This document shows positions 1,725 through 51,317 of a stretch of 64,000 bases of DNA, in pieces. Both the position numbers and the translations under genes were made by a program. The notes beneath the pieces are model-generated. The model was not told the origin of the DNA. It worked only from the letters and a program-made list of their open reading frames with translations, and ran no database searches. Source of the DNA: an uncultured Novosphingobium sp. (GTDB lineage: Bacteria; Pseudomonadota; Alphaproteobacteria; Sphingomonadales; Sphingomonadaceae); assembly GCA_964242815.1 (NCBI GenBank), contig CAXSZV010000014.1, positions 4,994 to 68,993 on the forward strand, read 5' to 3'. Numbering within the stretch: the first letter of the stretch is position 1; each line of letters begins with the position of its first letter.

Positions 1725-1850
1725 GTCCTCCGCAAGCGCGCCTGGGGAGGGGGACCGCAGCGCGAAGCGGTGGAGTGGCGGGGTCTTGCTTGACCCGGCG
1801 GATCGAGCGCGGTGACCCCTCCCCCGTCACTAAGCGAGCTTGGGGAGGAC
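1725..1850. repeat. Palindromic REP/CIR-like element with two inverted arms (family A)
   Basis: Arm 1 gtcctccgcaagcgcgcctggggagggggaccgcagcgcgaagcggtggag starts at 1725. Arm 2 aagcgagcttggggaggac (1832-1850) is the exact reverse complement of valS 21302-21320. Confidence 0.8.
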
Positions 1851-1857
1851 AAACCGG

Positions 1858-7952: not shown

Positions 7953-9152
7953 TTAGATATTTGCTAGAATAGAGTTGGGAGTAGTTCCATTATTACTAAT
8001 CCCTGCAGTGATGTTCCCCGTCGTATCATTGGACGAAATAATGTAGTTACTAGCAGAAGTTTGTGCAAAAATGCCGGTTCTCTGTTGCCCAGTTGCACCA
8101 TTTACACCACCAACTCGACAACCTGTAATGATAGTATGACTATTATTAAAGAATACGCCGTGAAATGTATTAGTTGCTTGTTGACCATTGAGCCCGATAA
8201 CGCAATTACCTAACGTAATGTCCTTGGGTCCATTATTTATCAAGATACCATTCTGAGCATTACCGGCAATCCGTGTTGCGGTTATCGATACATCTCCAAG
8301 GTAAGATGATCCGATAAAGACCCCATTGCCGGCAAGACATGATCCAACGAAAGCGCCTGTAAGGTAGAAGGCGGTTCCGCCAGTGAGATTTACACCGCCC
8401 GCCTGATTGTGATCGCATTCGAGATCAAAGACGTAGGCAAACTGCGGCCGACTGGCCGCTCCCTGACCAGCAGAATCAGCCATTACAAAGCCGACACCAC
8501 CTTGCAGCAAAGCGGCGCGTTTAATTGTAAGTGAGTTGGCGTAAGAGTCCATTTGAAATAGATTTGCCGAGGTATTTCCGGTATCAATCGTATCTACGAC
8601 TAGATCGGTTGCAGTCATGCCATAGCAGATATTATTAGCACCTGCTGTACCCCCATAGAAGACGCCATACGATCCGTAGGGTCCACGGATTAAAACCTGT
8701 TCAATCAGCGTCTCTGTCGAAGAAAGTACCTTAATTCCGTTCCAACAATAACCTATGTTAGTATTAGAAACGTGATTATCATAAGAGTTGCCATTACCAT
8801 TATTATTATTGAACTCGATTGCCACGCCACCGGTAGGGTTACCAGTGGTTCGATCGCTATAAATAGCGAGGTCTTCAACTCCACTATACGCACAACCCGA
8901 GAAGGTAATGGCATTAGATGATCTATTTGAATTTTTTATGAAGGTTGCTCCATGACCTTCACCACGAAGAGTACATCCGTTTTTCATACTAATATTTAGG
9001 GGGTTAGTTATCTTATAGGTTCCAGCAGGAAAGTACACAATTCCTCCGTTGGAACTTGCGATGCAGTCATTAATCGCAGCCTGAATAGCGGCGGTGTCAT
9101 CAGTTGATCCGTTGCCCGAAGCGCCTTTTGCGGTAACATTATAGACCGTCAT
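7953..9152 (-). CDS. Right-handed parallel beta-helix protein (Pectate_lyase_3/GH28-like N-terminus), low GC
   Basis: YNVTAKGASGNGSTDDTAAIQAAI...VYFPAGTYKI motif; Asn/Gly/Ile-rich beta-helix pattern; no signal peptide. Sampled lines are 37-45% GC. Confidence 0.85.
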   Translation of the reverse strand: MTVYNVTAKGASGNGSTDDTAAIQAAINDCIASSNGGIVYFPAGTYKITNPLNISMKNGCTLRGEGHGATFIKNSNRSSNAITFSGCAYSGVEDLAIYSDRTTGNPTGGVAIEFNNNNGNGNSYDNHVSNTNIGYCWNGIKVLSSTETLIEQVLIRGPYGSYGVFYGGTAGANNICYGMTATDLVVDTIDTGNTSANLFQMDSYANSLTIKRAALLQGGVGFVMADSAGQGAASRPQFAYVFDLECDHNQAGGVNLTGGTAFYLTGAFVGSCLAGNGVFIGSSYLGDVSITATRIAGNAQNGILINNGPKDITLGNCVIGLNGQQATNTFHGVFFNNSHTIITGCRVGGVNGATGQQRTGIFAQTSASNYIISSNDTTGNITAGISNNGTTPNSILANI

Positions 9153-9423
9153 GACTAAATACCTTTTCAAAAAAAATTGATATGTTGATAAAAACCGGCA
9201 TTATTATTAATAATTCTCGGTTGAAAAATACGTCGATATATATCCCTTTTCAGCAGGTAGCGAATCATATGTTCACGATTCGTTCCGTGTAGGAAAGTGA
9301 AATTTAATCGACATTCGCTTCGCGGATGGGGCGTGTCACCGATGCGTTCACGGTGTCATTTGAAGCGGCGTGAATGACGTAAGAACCCTGCTCTGAGGGA
9401 CCGTCAGGGGGTCGTTTATGGGC

Positions 9424-10911
9424 TTACCACCACTGCTGGGGCTTGGCGTTGAACCCGGCGCGCTGCTCGATCGCTCGCCCCGCATTCAGCACGCCCTGCT
9501 CGTCGAGCGGGCGGCCGATCAGCTGCAAGCCCAGCGGCAGGCCCTCGCGGTTCAGTCCCGCCGGCACCGACATCGCGGGCAGCCCGGCCAGGCTGGCGGG
9601 CACCGAGAAAACGTCGTTCAGGTACATCGCCAACGGATCGTCGCTCTTCTCGCCGAGCGCGAACGCGGCGGTCGGCGTGGTCGGCGCGAGGATCACGTCG
9701 CAACTTGCCCAGGCGTCCTCGAAGTCACGCGCGATCAGCGTGCGCACCTTCTGCGCCTGCGTGTAATAGGCGTCGTAGTACCCGGCCGACAGAACATACG
9801 TGCCGATCAGGATGCGGCGCTTGACCTCGCCGCCGAAGCCCGCCGCGCGCGTCGCTGCGTACATGTCCTGCAACCCCGCGCCGGCGGGCAGATCGCGCAG
9901 GCCGAAGCGCACGCCGTCGTAGCGCGCGAGGTTGGACGAGGCTTCGGCGGGCGCGATGATGTAATACGTCGGCAGCGCGTATTTCGTATGGGGCAGGCTG
10001 ATGTCGACGATCGTCGCGCCTGCGTCGCGGAGCCAGGCGATGCCCTGCTCCCAGCTCGCGGCGACATCGGCGTCCATGCCGTCCATCCGGTATTCGCGCG
10101 GGATGCCGACGCGCTTGCCCCCAAGATCGCCCGATAGCGCCGCTTCCCAATCGGGCACGGCTAGCGCGAGGCTGGTCGCGTCCTTCGCATCGAAGCCCGC
10201 CATCGCGCCGAGCATGATCGCGCAGTCGCGCACCGTCCGCGCCATCGGCCCCGCCTGGTCGAGCGAGGAGGCGAACGCGACGATGCCCCAGCGCGAGCAG
10301 CGGCCATAGGTCGGCTTGATCCCGCAGATGCCGGTGAACGCGGCAGGCTGCCGGATCGATCCGCCGGTGTCGGTGCCGGTCGCCGCCGGGCACAGCCGCG
10401 CGGCGACGCTAGCGCTGCTGCCGCCCGACGAGCCGCCCGGCGCGAGCGCGGCGTTGCCGCCGTCGGAACGCCGCCACGGCGAGTTGACGTTGCCGAAATA
10501 CGACGTCTCGTTCGACGATCCCATCGCGAACTGATCGAGGTTCAGCTTGCCGAGCATCCCCGCGCCCGCGTCCCACAGCTTCTGCGAGACGGTGCTTTCA
10601 TACTGCGGCATGAACCCTTCGAGGATATGGCTGGCGGCGGTCGTCTGTACCCCGGCGGTCGCGAACAGATCCTTCATCCCGATCGGCACGCCGCCCATCG
10701 CGCCCAGCGGCTCGCCTGCCGCGCGCTTCGCATCGACGCCGCGCGCAGCGTCGAGCGCGTGGTCGGGCGTCGCCACGATGAACGCGTTGAGCGCGGTTTG
10801 CGCGGCGGCGACGTTGGCGTTGAACGCCTCGGCCACCTCGACCGCGCTGAAGCTGCCGGCGACGACGCCATCGCGCAGGTCGGCGACGGTAAGTTCGGTG
10901 AGGTCGGTCAT
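9424..10911 (-). CDS. gatA: Asp/Glu-tRNA amidotransferase subunit A
   Basis: Amidase signature [33 protein letters not shown]. Confidence 0.98.
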
Positions 10912-11193: not shown

Positions 11194-11240
11194 CCCTCAA
11201 CCAGCCTGCGGCTGGTCCTCCTCCCCGTGCCGGGGAGGAT
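11194..11240 (-). repeat. Single arm of repeat family A
   Basis: Minus strand reads atcctccccggcacggggaggaggaccagccgcaggctggttgaggg, similar to the valS and ligD inserts. It begins about 10 nt after the gatC stop. Confidence 0.75.
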
Positions 11241-19704: not shown

Positions 19705-19817
19705 CGCACAGGGTCATGAACGCAATCGGCGTTTGTCGCAAGCGCAGCATCGACCGACAGGCGCGCCCGACCGCGCCGGGCTTGCGACGGGCGGGGGGCG
19801 CTGGCAAGGCCGCGGGC

Positions 19818-22583
19818 ATGACGCAGACACTCGGCCGGACGCACCCCCAGATGCCACAGGACCAGACGCCACAGGTCCACACGATGCTCGACAAGACGTT
19901 CGACCCCGCGGCGATCGAGGCGAAGTGGTACGCGCATTGGGAGGCGAACGGCCTGTTTCAACCCGACCGGCCCGACGCCGTGCCTTACACGATCGTCAAC
20001 CCGCCGCCCAACGTCACCGGATCGCTGCACGTCGGCCACGCGCTCGACAACACGTTGCAGGATATCATGATCCGTTACGAGCGGCTGCGCGGCAAGGATG
20101 CGCTGTGGGTGGTCGGCACCGATCACGCGGGCATCGCGACGCAGATGGTGGTCGAGCGGCGTTTGGAGGAACGCCAGGACAAGCGCGCGAACTACACGCG
20201 CGAAGCCTTCGTCGAGAAGGTGTGGGAGTGGAGGCACGAAAGCGGCGGCGCGATCACTCGCCAGCTCCGCCGGTTGGGCTGCTCGATGGACTGGAGTCGC
20301 GAACAGTTCACCATGAGCCCCGAGTTCAGCCGCGCGGTGACCAAGGTGTTCGTCGACCTCTACAACGAGGGGCTGATCTATCGCGACAAGCGGCTGGTGA
20401 ACTGGGATCCGCATTTCCGCACCGCGATTAGCGATCTCGAAGTGGAGCAGCGTGAGGTCAACGGGCACTTCTGGCACTTCCGCTATCCGCTGGCCGACGG
20501 CGCGCGACAGCTGGACGGCCGCGACTATCTGGTCGTCGCCACGACGCGCCCCGAAACGATCCTCGGCGACGGCGCGGTGGCGGTGAACGCGGCAGATGAG
20601 CGGTATCGTCACCTCGTCGGCGCGTGCGTGCGGCTGCCGCTGGTCGACCGGCTGATCCCGGTGATCGCCGACGATTACGTCAAGATCGACTTCGGCTCGG
20701 GCGCGGTGAAGATCACCGCCGCGCACGACCACAACGACTATGACGTTGCCAAGCGCCACCCCGAGGCGAACATCCCGCTCATCAACCTGATGAACGCCGA
20801 CGCGAGCATGAGCGACGCCTGCCCGCCGGGCTATCGTGGGCTGGACAGGTACGAGGCGCGCGCGAAAGTGGTCGCCGATTTCGATGCACTGGGCCTGCTC
20901 GATCATATCGAGGATCACGTCCACCAGGTTCCCTATGGCGACCGCAGCGGCGTCGTCATCGAGCCGTGGCTCACCGACCAGTGGTACGTCGACGCCAAGA
21001 CGCTCGCCCAACCGGCGATCGCGGCGGTGCGCGATGGGCGGATCGATATCGTGCCCAAGAGCTGGGAGAAGACGTTCTTCAACTGGATGGAGAACATCCA
21101 GCCTTGGTGTGTGAGCCGGCAGCTGTGGTGGGGCCATCGGATCCCGGCTTGGTATGGCGATGACGGCTCGATCGTCGTCGCGCAAAGCGAGGGTGAAGCG
21201 CGACGTCTCGCCAATGGAGAGCGGCTGACTCAGGACGAGGACGTCCTCGACACCTGGTTCTCCTCCGCGCTCTGGCCCTTCGCAACGCTCGGCTGGCCCT
21301 TGTCCTCCCCAAGCTCGCTTGGGGCGGGGGACCAGCCGCAGACCGGTGGAGGGGTTCGCTTCGCGGATAGCCTCCTCACCCGCCATTATCCCAACGACCT
21401 GCTCATCTCGGGTTTCGATATCCTGTTTTTCTGGGATGCGCGGATGGCGATGCAGGGGTTGCACTTCATGGGCGATGTGCCGTGGAAGCGGCTGTATCTG
21501 CATGGCTTGGTGCGCGCGGCGGATGGCGCGAAGATGTCGAAGTCCAAGGGCAACGTCGTCGATCCGCTGCTGCTGATCGATCGCTTCGGCGCGGACGCGC
21601 TGCGGTTCTTCATGGCGGCGATGGAGAGCCAGGGCCGCGACGTGAAGATGGACGAGCGGCGGCTCGAGGGATACCGCAACTTCGCCACCAAGCTGTGGAA
21701 CGCCGCGCGGTTCTGCCAGAGCAACGGCATCGGCGCGTCGACGACGCTCGCCGCGCCGGCGGCGACGCTGGCGGTCAACAGGTGGATCGTCGGCGAGGTG
21801 GTCGAGACGCTTGCCGCCATCGACAAGGCGCTCGCCGACCTGCGCTTCGACGCAGCGGCAAACGCGATCTACCACTTCGCGTGGGACACGTTCTGCGACT
21901 GGTACGTGGAGTTGATCAAGCCGGTGCTCGGTCCTCCCGGACCTGAGGAGGACGAGACGCGCGCGGTCGCGGGTTGGGTGCTCGACCAGATCCTGGTCAT
22001 GCTCCACCCGTTCATGCCATTCGTGACCGAGGAGCTGTGGGCCGCGCTCGGCGCGCGGGAGACCGACTTGATCGTCGCGCGATGGCCAGCGCCCGAGGCG
22101 GTGGTCGACGCGGAAGCTAAGACCGACGTTGAATGGCTGATCGCACTCACCGGCAATCTGCGCGCGGCGAAGGCAGAGCTCGGCATCGCCCCCGGTGCGC
22201 GGCTGGATGCGTTCCTGCCGGATCCCGGCGAGCGGACCCGCGCGATCATCGCGGCGAACGCGAGCATCATCGAGCGAGTGACGCGATTGTCGACGATCAG
22301 CTTCGCGCCGCCGCCGGCGGGGGCGGCGATGCAGGTGGGCGTGGGGGACGCCAGCCTGTCGATCCCGCTCGCGGGCGTGATCGACTTGTCCGCCGAACGC
22401 GCGCGCCTGACGAAGTCGCTCGCCACGTCCGAAAAGGAGCGCGACGCGCTCGCCAAGCGGCTCGCCAACACGGCGTTCGTCGAAAAGGCCAAACCCGAGG
22501 CGATCGACAAGGCGCGGGCCGACCATGCGGGCCATGCGGCCGAAGCCGAGCGTCTTGCGGCCGCATTGGCGCGGCTCAATTAG
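19818..22583 (+). CDS. valS: Valine--tRNA ligase
   Basis: [13 protein letters not shown] (HIGH), [18 protein letters not shown]-terminal coiled coil. Start may instead be the Met of MLDKTF. Confidence 0.98.
21302..21355 (+). repeat. Family-A repeat arm inserted in frame in valS
   Basis: gtcctccccaagctcgcttggggcgggggaccagccgcagaccggtggaggggt; its first 19 bp match the intergenic copy at 1832-1850 (reverse complement). Translated as [18 protein letters not shown]. Confidence 0.85.
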
Positions 22584-32554: not shown

Positions 32555-32594
32555 GTGGAGCGCAGGCGGTTAGCCGAGCTGCCGACGATCGACC

Positions 32595-33018
<424 letters not shown>

Positions 33019-33028
33019 GGTCGCGCCG

Positions 33029-48620: not shown

Positions 48621-51317
48621 GTGGCGCGCGGCAGGCCCAAGGTATCGCCAGCCGCGCCCGACCCCTCCGGCGACCCGCTCGCCGAATACAACCGCAAGCG
48701 CGATTTCGCCAAGACGCCCGAGCCCGCGGGCACGCGCGCGCGCAGCGACACCGGCAACCGCTTCATCGTGCAGAAGCATGCGGCGACACGGCTGCACTGG
48801 GATTTTCGCCTCGAGGTCGACGGCGTGCTCAAGAGCTGGGCGGTGACGCGCGGCCCCAGCCCCGACCCGGCCGACAAGCGCCTGGCGGTGCGCACCGAGG
48901 ACCACCCGCTCGCCTATGCCAACTTCGAGGGCATCATCGCCAAGGGCGAATACGGCGGCGGATCGGTGATGCTGTGGGACCAGGGCACCTGGGCGCCGAT
49001 CGCGGGCAAGAGCGCGAAAGATATCGACGCTGGGCACCTGCACTTCACGCTCGACGGCGAGCGGATGAAGGGCGAGTGGATCCTGATCCGCCTGAAGCCG
49101 CGCCCGGGCGAGAAGCGCGAAAACTGGCTGCTGCGCAAGGTCGCCGATCAGCACGCGCAGGAAGGCGACCAGCTCGTCGAGCACGGGCTGACCAGCGTGC
49201 TGACCGGGCGCAGCATGGCGCAGATCGCCGGCGACGAGGCGGGCGAGGTGTCGCTGAAGGGCAAGCGAGGCCAAGCCTTCGCCAAGGAGATGGACGCGGC
49301 GGCCGAGCATAACGCGGAGCTTGGCGCCCCCTCCACCACCGCTACGCGGCGGTCCCCCTCTCCCGGAGGGGGAGGATTGAAGAAGCGCGCGAAACCCCAT
49401 CCTCCCCCGCCGGGGGAGGGGGACCGGTCGAAGACCGGTGGAGGGGGATTTCGCGCGACGGCGCCCCCCTTCCAACCCCCCCAGCTCGCGACGCTGGTCG
49501 ATGCGGTGCCCACCGGCAACGGCTGGATGCACGAGATCAAGTTCGACGGCTATCGCGCGCTGATCGCCGCGTCGGGCGACGAGGTGCGCGTCTACACGCG
49601 CAACGGGCATGACTGGACCGAAAAGTTCGCGCCGCTGGTGCGCGCGCTCGCCGCGCTCGACCTGCCGCCGTGCCTGATCGACGGTGAGATCGTCGCCTAT
49701 GGCGCGGACGGCAACCCCGACTTCTCGTCGCTACAGAACGTGCTGAAGCGCGGACACGGATCGCAGACCGACGCCGACGCGCTGACGCTGCACGCGTTCG
49801 ACCTGCTGACGCTCGACGGCGAGGACCTGACGCCGCGCGGCAATATCGAGCGCAAGGAAGTGCTCGAACGCCTGCTCGAGCACGCCGCACCGCCGATCCA
49901 TGTCGCCGACTACGTGATCGGCGCGGGCGAGAAACTGTTCGCCGCGATGTGCGCGGCGGGGCAGGAAGGCATCATCTCGAAAGTGATCGACGCGGCTTAT
50001 GCGGGCCGGCGGACGAAGAACTGGGTCAAGGTCAAGTGCACGAACCGGCAGGAGTTCGTGATCGTCGGGTATAGCAAAAGCTCGACCAAGGCCCGGCCGT
50101 TCGCGTCGCTGCTGCTCGCGCAGCATGAAGCCGATGGAAACGGAAAAACCGCGCTGGTCTACAAGGGCAAGGTCGGCACCGGTTTCGACAGCGCGACGCT
50201 CGATACGGTCGCGGCGGCGCTGGCGAAGCACGCGCGCGACGACGCGCCGCTCGAGGTGCCGCGCGTCGAGGCGCGCGGCGCGCGCTGGGTCGAGCCCAAG
50301 CTGGTCGCCGAAGTCGCGTTCGCCGAGTTCACCGGCGACGGCCGCGTGCGCCATGCAAGCTTCGTCGGGCTGCGCGCGGACAAGCCGGCGAAGGCGGTTC
50401 GGCCCGAACGCGCCGAACCCGCTCCCAAAGCGTCCAAAGCACAGGCTACACCGACGCCGCTGGTCGCGATCAGCAACCGCGATCGCGTGATCGATCCCGA
50501 CAGCGGGCGCACCAAGGGCGAGCTAGCCGACTATTACCAGGCCATCGCGCCGCTGCTGCTACAGACCGCCGCCAACCGCCCGTTGAGCCTGGTTCGCTGT
50601 CCGCAAGGCCGCGCCAAGAAATGCTTCTTCCAGAAGCACGATAGCGGGGCGATCGGCGACCATGTACGGCACGTTCCGGTCGCCGAAAAGGATGGCGGCA
50701 CGGAGGATTACCTGTGGGTCGACGACGCCATGGGGCTGTTGCAGTGCGTGCAGATGGGGACGATCGAGTTCCACGGCTGGGGCGCGCCGGCGAGCGCGGT
50801 CGAGCGGCCCGACCGCATGGTGTTCGACCTCGATCCCGACGAAGGCCTCGACTTCGCCGACGTCCGTTCGGCGGCGGTGCATATCCGCGACCGGCTCACC
50901 GAGATCGGGCTCACGAGCTTCGCGATGCTGTCGGGCGGCAAGGGCGTGCACGTCGTCGTGCCGCTGCAGCCGGGTCATGACTGGGAGACGCACAAGGATT
51001 TCTCGCGCCGCTTCTCGGAGGCGCTGTCGGCGGCGGAACCCGAGCGTTTCGTCGCGACGATGAGCAAGGCGAAGCGCGTCGGCCGCATCTTCATCGACTG
51101 GCTGCGCAACCAGCGCGGCGCAACCGCGGTGATGCCCTATTCGGCACGCAGTCGGACGGGCACGCCGGTCGCGCTGCCGATCGCCTGGGGCGAGCTCGAA
51201 GGCATGGCCGACGCGCACCCGTTCACCATCCTCGACAGAGACGCTCTGATCGAACGAGCGGGTGCGAAGGCCCTAGCGGGCTGGGGCGTGGCGGATCAGG
51301 CGTTGCCGGCGCTCTGA
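48621..51317 (+). CDS. ligD: NHEJ DNA ligase D (phosphoesterase-ligase-polymerase)
   Basis: QKHAATRLHWDFRLE, HEIKFDGYR, EGIISK, WVKVK, FDLDPD, SGGKGVHV, IFIDWLRN. Confidence 0.97.
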   Translation: MARGRPKVSPAAPDPSGDPLAEYNRKRDFAKTPEPAGTRARSDTGNRFIVQKHAATRLHWDFRLEVDGVLKSWAVTRGPSPDPADKRLAVRTEDHPLAYANFEGIIAKGEYGGGSVMLWDQGTWAPIAGKSAKDIDAGHLHFTLDGERMKGEWILIRLKPRPGEKRENWLLRKVADQHAQEGDQLVEHGLTSVLTGRSMAQIAGDEAGEVSLKGKRGQAFAKEMDAAAEHNAELGAPSTTATRRSPSPGGGGLKKRAKPHPPPPGEGDRSKTGGGGFRATAPPFQPPQLATLVDAVPTGNGWMHEIKFDGYRALIAASGDEVRVYTRNGHDWTEKFAPLVRALAALDLPPCLIDGEIVAYGADGNPDFSSLQNVLKRGHGSQTDADALTLHAFDLLTLDGEDLTPRGNIERKEVLERLLEHAAPPIHVADYVIGAGEKLFAAMCAAGQEGIISKVIDAAYAGRRTKNWVKVKCTNRQEFVIVGYSKSSTKARPFASLLLAQHEADGNGKTALVYKGKVGTGFDSATLDTVAAALAKHARDDAPLEVPRVEARGARWVEPKLVAEVAFAEFTGDGRVRHASFVGLRADKPAKAVRPERAEPAPKASKAQATPTPLVAISNRDRVIDPDSGRTKGELADYYQAIAPLLLQTAANRPLSLVRCPQGRAKKCFFQKHDSGAIGDHVRHVPVAEKDGGTEDYLWVDDAMGLLQCVQMGTIEFHGWGAPASAVERPDRMVFDLDPDEGLDFADVRSAAVHIRDRLTEIGLTSFAMLSGGKGVHVVVPLQPGHDWETHKDFSRRFSEALSAAEPERFVATMSKAKRVGRIFIDWLRNQRGATAVMPYSARSRTGTPVALPIAWGELEGMADAHPFTILDRDALIERAGAKALAGWGVADQALPAL
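49327..49447. repeat. Two-arm family-A palindromic element inserted in frame in ligD
   Basis: Arm cccctccaccaccgctacgcggcggtccccctctcccggagggggaggat is inverted relative to atcctcccccgccgggggagggggaccggtcgaagaccggtggaggggg. Translated as PSTTATRRSPSPGGGGLKKRAKPHPPPPGEGDRSKTGGGG. Confidence 0.88.

Follow-up and report, generated by a model that had tools for sequence, protein, structure and literature searches.

An in-frame palindromic arm in the valS gene of a Novosphingobium genome as a probable relic of a DUF559 nuclease element

How does a palindromic DNA repeat come to be read in frame inside an essential enzyme, and what was inserted there? This question is raised by valS, the valyl-tRNA synthetase (ValRS) gene of an uncultured Novosphingobium sp. 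(GenBank assembly GCA_964242815.1), in which an arm of a repeat family, here called family A, is translated in the loop after the residues TLGWP. The window, that is, the whole stretch of DNA that was analysed, comprises 64,000 nucleotides (nt), C14:4994-68993 of a 2.54-Mb draft genome (G000; 33 contigs, 66-68% GC, 97.7% complete). We found that relatives carry, at the same codon of valS and in the same phase, a full-length element in which two inverted family-A arms enclose a DUF559 nuclease. The valS segment at 21303-21362(-21371) is probably the relic of such a full element after an in-frame internal deletion and, as part of this reading as a whole, it probably has no evident role in ValRS function.

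The family-A arm within valS

valS is an essential, single-copy gene. Its likely start is 19884, because the alignments of relatives begin only at Met57 of the 19716-22583 frame; it is the sole full-length ValRS gene of the genome, the other matches being paralogues with 25-33% identity. The codons at 21300-21371 read TTG TCC TCC CCA AGC TCG CTT GGG GCG GGG GAC CAG CCG CAG ACC GGT GGA GGG GTT CGC TTC GCG GAT AGC. The initial annotation had placed a repeat arm at 21302-21355, in frame in valS, and both statements are correct with the arm at 21303-21355; a hidden Markov model (HMM) of family A recovered it in round 1 (E = 4e-16) and again in round 3 (E = 1e-12). The exact reverse complement of 1832-1850, noted for the first 19 bp, in fact extends to 21 nt (21300-21320, TTGTCCTCCCCAAGCTCGCTT, against 1832-1852), and none of 100 shuffles gave any match. 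The resemblance of the tail to 11194-11240 also holds, that copy being a genuine minus-strand member. Convergence of low-complexity sequence as the source of the similarity is ruled out by alignments of 52-58 nt at 86-88% identity and by the HMM E-values.

Genome-wide searches with blastn and iterated nhmmer placed about 30 arms at some 23 loci. Each arm, about 53 nt in length, is built from hairpin 1 (TCCTCCCC and GGGGAGG on either side of a loop that varies in length), the sequence GGGACC, hairpin 2 (stem of 7 bp, loop GCA or GAA) and a box, GGTGGAGGGGT. At many loci two inverted arms with a spacer of 30-45 nt form palindromes of 95-151 nt, the miniature form of the family being 120-150 nt long; other loci are solo arms, and the ligD arms are joined in the opposite way. 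A count of the motif GGACC-N8-12-GGTGGAGGGG gave 14 in the genome against 0 in the reversed control; among 151 genomes of the order, the motif is nearly confined to the GTDB family of the window (12 of 54 genera, up to 83 copies per genome). All four variable pairs of hairpin 2 are kept, by compensatory changes, in 40 of 46 distinct variants, compared with 15% for randomly paired halves, and two variable positions each show four pair types; the arm structure, as DNA or RNA, is therefore under selection in family A. Two broken pairs are seen in the valS copy alone, which would thus be decaying.

Family-A arms also border longer segments. Two facing arms at C20:15968-18657 span about 2.6 kb of DNA with low GC content (third codon positions, GC3, about 0.45), which encodes a protein of about 510 amino acids with a C-terminal cytidine/dCMP deaminase domain (PF00383, MafB19-like); this gene looks foreign and is possibly defence-related. 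Two genomes from a different family, in which family A is otherwise absent, have two direct copies of about 70 nt, each with an arm in it, around an 846-nt low-GC segment encoding a TIR-domain protein (PF13676; L115, G044:C3:43900-45500, and L116, G035:C50:125300-126900).

Family-A loci were assigned as intragenic or intergenic by the GC3 coding signal on both sides and by a Pfam scan of the host proteins. Seven of the approximately 23 loci lie in frame in recognisable genes, namely valS and six others: metH, uvrC, trmD, truB, ligD and a Polysacc_synt flippase gene. Pfam domains are split by the copies in metH (within Met_synt_B12), uvrC (within UvrC_RNaseH_dom), trmD (where the tRNA_m1G_MT match is cut into two) and the flippase gene. 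The copies in valS, metH, uvrC, ligD, the flippase gene and trmD share one reading phase, which gives ..GEGDxxxxGGGV.. for the arm and PLHHxxxGPPPxxGED for its reverse; the phase of the truB copy differs.

Comparison with orthologues shows the valS arm to be an insertion. Counted from the Pro of GWP up to the residue that precedes HYP, the window ValS has 29 residues, whereas 88 of 107 Sphingomonadales ValS have 9-10 (13-15 in a few); outside the genus, and in most members within it, the loop of 9-10 residues has no such peptide. The arm thus adds about 20 residues relative to most relatives. In the alignment with Thermus thermophilus ValRS (1GAX), the aligned blocks stop at residue 472 and restart at 477, with only residues 473-476 between them. 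We modelled the window ValRS with AlphaFold2 from a 47-sequence alignment (numbering from Met57; mean predicted local distance difference test, pLDDT, 83.7). Residues 475-494, the insert, form the longest stretch with pLDDT below 50 and have no secondary structure in the model, where they sit between a short helix and a helix-strand unit leading into GFDILFFW; the inserted segment is therefore predicted to be disordered. A variable region of another kind lies at ValS residues ~419-445 (window ~21140-21220), where many relatives (e.g. L027, L030, L044, L046, L069 and L105) have acidic/aromatic insertions of 12-40 residues that are not palindromic repeats.

DUF559 elements and recurrent inserts in the ValS loop

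In relatives, family-A arms 376-415 nt apart enclose a DUF559 open reading frame (ORF) at three distinct loci in five relatives (Table 1). The arms and the ORF form one open frame, with PF04480 matches of E = 1e-25 to 1e-26; the full element, about 480 nt long and open from end to end, is composed of inverted family-A arms and a DUF559 ORF (Vsr-like, PD-(D/E)XK). DUF559 is present in 54 of 61 genomes of the family and is usually flanked by palindromic arms of some family. When an arm-DUF559-arm query was compared with 301 genomes of the family, about half of the ~105 best matches covered both arms and DUF559 in one frame. DUF559 is the obvious candidate for moving the arms. The initial annotation had proposed a non-autonomous repeat family that adds peptide segments to proteins; the addition of peptides is borne out by the in-frame copies, but the term non-autonomous is incomplete, since the arms end DUF559 elements in relatives. 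The only DUF559 gene of the window genome, C1:237363-237677, is bracketed by another palindrome family (family B). Within C1:237300-237800, family-B pairs stand on both sides of this gene, CCCCTCCCGCTTGCGGGAGGGG then TTGGGGGTGGG, and in L043 and L084 the ValS loop is occupied by family-B peptides.

A protein search with only residues 470-620 of ValS recovered ValS proteins that contain PF04480 (P0003, P0004, P0036 and P0039), which one source names 'valyl-tRNA synthetase/very-short-patch-repair endonuclease'. These four proteins read GWPE-SSPSPDGEGDQPQAGGGV(S/R/A)Y..[DUF559]..PLHHPADGPPPRQAGED-SLLARHYP. Together with genomes G385 and G362, they place an arm-DUF559-arm element at the GWP+1 codon of valS in at least six other lineages. 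In G385 (L155, G385:C1:1109648-1110202), an extra reverse arm (PPPPSAVPLPGGAGED) lies upstream of the full element in the ValS loop, indicating that insertions in the valS loop can be nested or serial. The full valS element of G362 (L156, G362:C1:1418083-1418700) has an out-of-frame stretch with one TGA before the frame is restored; this reflects either a sequencing error or the decay of the nuclease, which would disrupt an essential gene.

When the window DNA was aligned with the valS-resident DUF559 elements L152-L154, the arm was seen to begin exactly 3 nt past the Pro codon in all four sequences. The window tracks the full elements through the arm and seven more bases (TCGCTTC, against TCGCTAC in L154); then about 0.4 kb is absent, and the alignment picks up at GCGGATAGC, at or near the 3' end of the element. 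According to this alignment, the element-derived stretch of valS spans 21303-21362, possibly up to 21371. The peptides VRY, VSY and VAY occur at the start of the cargo in P0004, P0039, P0003, P0036 and G362, and we read 21356-21362 as a putative cargo remnant. In the ValS tree, the four full-element proteins fall in at least three separate places, beside insert-free relatives, and the window ValS groups with P0036 (full element) and L079 (insert-free) with a Shimodaira-Hasegawa-like approximate likelihood ratio test (SH-aLRT) value of 99. In a comparison aimed at co-conversion, the flanks of element-bearing and empty valS alleles were uniformly 85-95% identical to each other, both near the element and far from it; this comparison was ungapped and was broken by upstream indels.

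The same loop has been filled repeatedly. In 19 of the 107 Sphingomonadales ValS, inserts lengthen it to 20-55 residues, and all of these inserts are GC-rich palindromes in the DNA. They derive from at least five repeat families: A and A', B, C, D and E (Table 1). Mapping of insert presence and absence on a ValS tree built with the loop removed called for a minimum of 14 changes, with branches of good support imposing at least 11 of them, and the inserts are nearly as scattered on the tree as shuffled labels. The repeat activity had been attributed to this lineage; the seven in-frame loci show that it does occur in this genome, but it is not peculiar to it, as the same ValS loop has been hit by several families across Sphingomonadales.

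A second, weaker palindrome site of ValS follows FCDWYLELIKP, at about residue 681 from Met57 (window ~21920-21960). It is filled in L065, L066, L070, L084, G075 (L121) and P0036; G075 has family-A elements at both ValS sites, and the window ValS is only slightly longer than the consensus at this one. In P0002, a partial ValS from a Croceibacterium sp. metagenome-assembled genome, the segment TLGWP...KMSKS occurs twice, once with a family-C insert and once without; this is probably a chimeric contig, but it could represent two alleles in one sample.

Table 1. Features of valS, the arm and related loci (positions in the window unless a locus is named)
Feature	Position or sequence	Strand	Evidence or remark
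valS (valyl-tRNA synthetase), coding sequence	19884..22583	+	open frame from 19716; 1GAX ValRS match E = 1e-52
Family-A arm, translated in frame	21303..21355	+	blastn and nhmmer against own genome; base-for-base alignment with 5' arm of L152-L154
Hairpin 1, stem TCC(T)CCCCAAG / CTTGGGG(C)GGG, loop CTCG	21303..21328	+	one mismatched pair; ViennaRNA
Hairpin 2, ACCAGCC-GCA-GACCGGT, decayed	21331..21347	+	two of four variable pairs mismatched
TCGCTTC (..V-R-F), just past the arm	21356..21362	+	match to V-R-Y (TCGCTAC), the codons that open the cargo in full DUF559 elements at the valS site
GCGGATAGC (A-D-S)	21363..21371	+	ambiguous: last 3'-arm bases (GAGGATAGC in L152) or host loop codons (cf. 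PEADAPLL in relatives)
Empty valS site	..GGCTGGCCGGAR / ..CTGCTCGCC..		insertion point at the slash
Arm-DUF559-arm loci in relatives	L112-L114 (pntA spacer); L117 and L118; L119		
A and A' inserts in the ValS loop	PPRSGEVAARSADGGG...PLHHPADGPPPRSGED		
B inserts	PLPLAGGxGGG...PTPNPSRKREGD		
C inserts	PSPLAGEGGERSE...		
D inserts	PELVEG...LRQAQG		
E inserts	FVSSAVET...STTLDANG		
Complete two-arm family-A element	1726..1852		plus arm 1726-1777, minus arm 1817-1852; fills the spacer of co-directional genes ending at 1716 and starting at ~1859
Solo family-A arm at a gene boundary	11194..11240	-	both hairpins intact; nhmmer E = 6.7e-9
Two head-to-head family-A arms, in frame in the LigD linker (phosphoesterase/ligase domains)	49328..49446 (+)		minus arm 49328-49377, plus arm 49399-49446
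RNase P RNA, bacterial class A	32589..33020	-	full-length match, 257.8 bits

An Rfam scan of the window returned the RNase P RNA only, and the repeat is covered by no known RNA family. The GC content of window 8001-10000 is 0.52, compared with 0.64-0.75 in the rest of the window.

History of the valS segment and alternative explanations

We infer that a full element came first and that a deletion followed. The element would have inserted in the loop after TLGWP, at the codon and in the phase used in valS of other Sphingomonadales, and it would have been tolerated because it was in frame, stop-free and located in a short surface connection of ValRS (four residues in 1GAX). In the window lineage, an in-frame internal deletion of about 0.4 kb would then have taken out the nuclease and the 3' arm, leaving the 5' arm, whose translation adds 20-23 residues that are rich in Ser, Pro and Gly and probably disordered. 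With hairpin 2 broken and the cognate nuclease gone from the genome, the relic would now be decaying. In this history the arms would be mobilised by the nuclease and the added peptide would be neutral.

Several points weigh against it. The cargo remnant is only 7-8 nt long and is a good match to the L154-type element alone (7 of 8 bases), and the 3' boundary is ambiguous, since GCGGAT is possibly host sequence. Across eleven family-A copies, no consistent target-site duplication was found. The only DUF559 gene of the genome is flanked by family B, so family A has no cognate nuclease there, and the nuclease activity or mobility of DUF559 elements is putative. L001 and L079 are on long branches, and their grouping may therefore be an artefact. 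Finally, the arm is a mosaic. The 5' half and loop of hairpin 1, together with the TTG that precedes the arm, are identical to the copy at 1832-1852, and thus match intergenic copies of its own genome rather than the valS-resident elements of other lineages; the middle of the arm is as in those valS-resident elements; and hairpin 2 agrees with the ligD copy in its 3' half. This mosaic suggests conversion among copies, and it is also compatible with independent insertion, or gene conversion, of a solo arm.

The strongest alternative is accordingly that a solo arm, or an arm-only miniature, was inserted or copied into valS and that a DUF559 element was never at the locus. Solo arms are known elsewhere in the genome, at 11194-11240 and several other loci, and the exact 21-nt identity to the intergenic copy includes the TTG outside the arm; likewise, the loop of hairpin 1 (AAGCTCGCTT) is of the own-genome type and not ATCGCCAGAT, as in valS-resident elements. 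However, full elements share one nucleotide and phase in at least six other valS genes, and a solo arm would have had to enter at that very position. Moreover, the V-R-F codons match the start of the cargo (V-R-Y), unlike the sequence past the arm in any other copy of this genome, and the window ValS clusters with the full-element protein P0036, in addition to the insert-free L079. We consider the solo-arm explanation unlikely, and the deletion of a full element remains the probable origin of the segment.

A role for the insert, either as a new interaction of ValRS or through regulation of valS mRNA translation or stability by hairpin 1, is very improbable. Hairpin 1 is still strong in ViennaRNA, the whole arm folding at about -26.6 kcal/mol, and the loop is kept in an essential single-copy gene. 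Nevertheless, hairpin 2 has decayed, the peptide is of low complexity and predicted to be disordered, the loop inserts of other lineages derive from unrelated repeat families, with no sequence in common, and 88 of the 107 relatives have no insert at all. The idea that assembly or binning mis-joined a repeat into valS, which the 33-contig draft state of this metagenome-type assembly and the visibly chimeric P0002, a database ValS fragment, bring to mind, is hardly credible, given that the insert leaves the reading frame exactly intact, that full elements in independent assemblies use this very codon and that the flanks are continuous valS sequence.

A more general proposal may be put forward tentatively, and we regard it as somewhat doubtful: DUF559 nucleases and their cognate GC-rich hairpin arms might form a widespread class of selfish elements that enter precise codons of tolerant loops in essential genes, with ValS after TLGWP as a preferred site, persist by read-through translation without splicing, and spawn miniatures and relics. 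Under this proposal, short-patch conversion between copies would account for the mosaicism of the valS arm. Bacterial housekeeping proteins have few ways of gaining new peptide segments, and in-frame selfish repeats are one of them; here the process is at work across a large order of free-living bacteria, the Sphingomonadales, in which several repeat families have filled one ValRS loop on at least 11-14 separate occasions. DUF559, to which the repeats are tied, is a very common nuclease family of 'unknown function'; if the nuclease mobilises the arms, this would provide a function for DUF559 and a homing-like element that needs no intron or intein. The inserts also mark insertion-tolerant loops of essential enzymes, and they account for many spurious 'hypothetical proteins' and unusual Pro/Gly/Ser-rich segments in annotations of GC-rich genomes.

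Comparison with known repeat and nuclease systems

Translated palindromes occur among the Rickettsia palindromic elements (RPE). RPE-1 and others are palindromic repeats of which a large share lies in frame in unrelated housekeeping genes and is translated (Ogata et al. 2000, summarised in PMC10969869), and nearly half of the RPEs in R. conorii were reported within ORFs (PMC10969869). Family A resembles them as a set of dispersed palindromes (~100-150 bp, many copies, in RPE; about 30 arms at about 23 loci, with two-arm copies of 95-151 nt, in family A) and in having in-frame copies in genes of unrelated function, at 7 of its ~23 loci. In contrast, its host is a free-living, GC-rich member of Sphingomonadales and not Rickettsia, and it has a full-length form encoding DUF559, while the RPE sources describe no protein-coding partner. 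We therefore describe family A as working like RPE without filing it as a member; the likeness is one of behaviour, and homology to the RPE-1 to RPE-10 consensus families, judged from the host and its 68% GC, is unlikely.

The CGTC and GTAG repetitive extragenic palindromes (REPs) are short hairpins, often in inverted pairs, found within alphaproteobacterial genes (Di Nocera, De Gregorio and Rocco 2013, PMC3733652). CGTC REPs occur in frame in Sphingomonadales, namely in ileS, glyS and truB of E. litoralis and in S. alaskensis, and have no known dedicated transposase (PMC3733652). They have an unpaired 5' tag, CGTC (TGTC, CCTC), a single stem of 8-9 bp with A-T as the first two pairs, a loop of 4-5 nt and a CCA tail, and they encode peptides such as VIPAKAGI or RHPREGGDP (PMC3733652). 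truB, uvr genes and tRNA synthetase genes are recurrent hosts of these REPs and of family A alike, and valS is absent from the REP hosts listed in the supplement of PMC3733652. Several family-A copies start with TGTCC or TATCC, and the valS copy with TTGTCC, which recalls the CGTC tag; here, however, TCC belongs to the stem. Unlike CGTC REPs, family A has two hairpins and the GGTGGAGGGG box, and it encodes the two peptides given above for the arm and the reverse arm. Membership in the CGTC/GTAG REPs is ruled out by stem, loop and tail: the stem of hairpin 1 has 10-11 bp and starts with CCTCCCC, and it is followed by the second hairpin and the GGTGGAGGGG box.

The REPIN concept, in which REPs act as doublets, is said to have been introduced by Bertels and Rainey in 2011. 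REPINs are mobilised by RAYT transposases (PMC3733652). As in REPIN-RAYT systems, inverted hairpin doublets form a larger palindrome in family A, and a single-copy gene flanked by the same repeats is the suspected mobiliser. The flanked gene, however, is DUF559 (PD-(D/E)XK, Vsr-like) and not a Y1 (IS200-like) transposase, and the repeats lack the GTAG tag; a search of the 97.7%-complete genome for RAYT (Y1_Tnp, PF01797) gave no match, and the controls did match. With inverted arms of about 50 nt around a spacer of 30-45 nt, family A also looks like a miniature inverted-repeat transposable element; no consistent duplication was seen at eleven of its copies, and its longer relative carries DUF559 and not a known transposase.

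Homing endonuclease genes in inteins and group I introns place a selfish nuclease at one precise position of a conserved gene. Similarly, the nuclease element of family A recurs at one position of an essential gene, and the closest relatives lack it. Unlike inteins, which have Cys, Ser or Thr at +1 and a C-terminal His-Asn, the full elements start with SSPSP and end with GED followed by S, N or L, with no intein-like termini on inspection, and their nuclease is of the PD-(D/E)XK type (PF04480) and not LAGLIDADG- or HNH-type; no splicing element is evident, and the whole element appears to be simply translated within the host protein. In the literature covered, which did not include subscription journals, we found no description of a link between DUF559 and palindromic arms or of a ValS hot spot. 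Taken together, the in-frame repeat itself is ordinary; what is new is that a full form with a nuclease occupies the same codon and that one loop has been used repeatedly.

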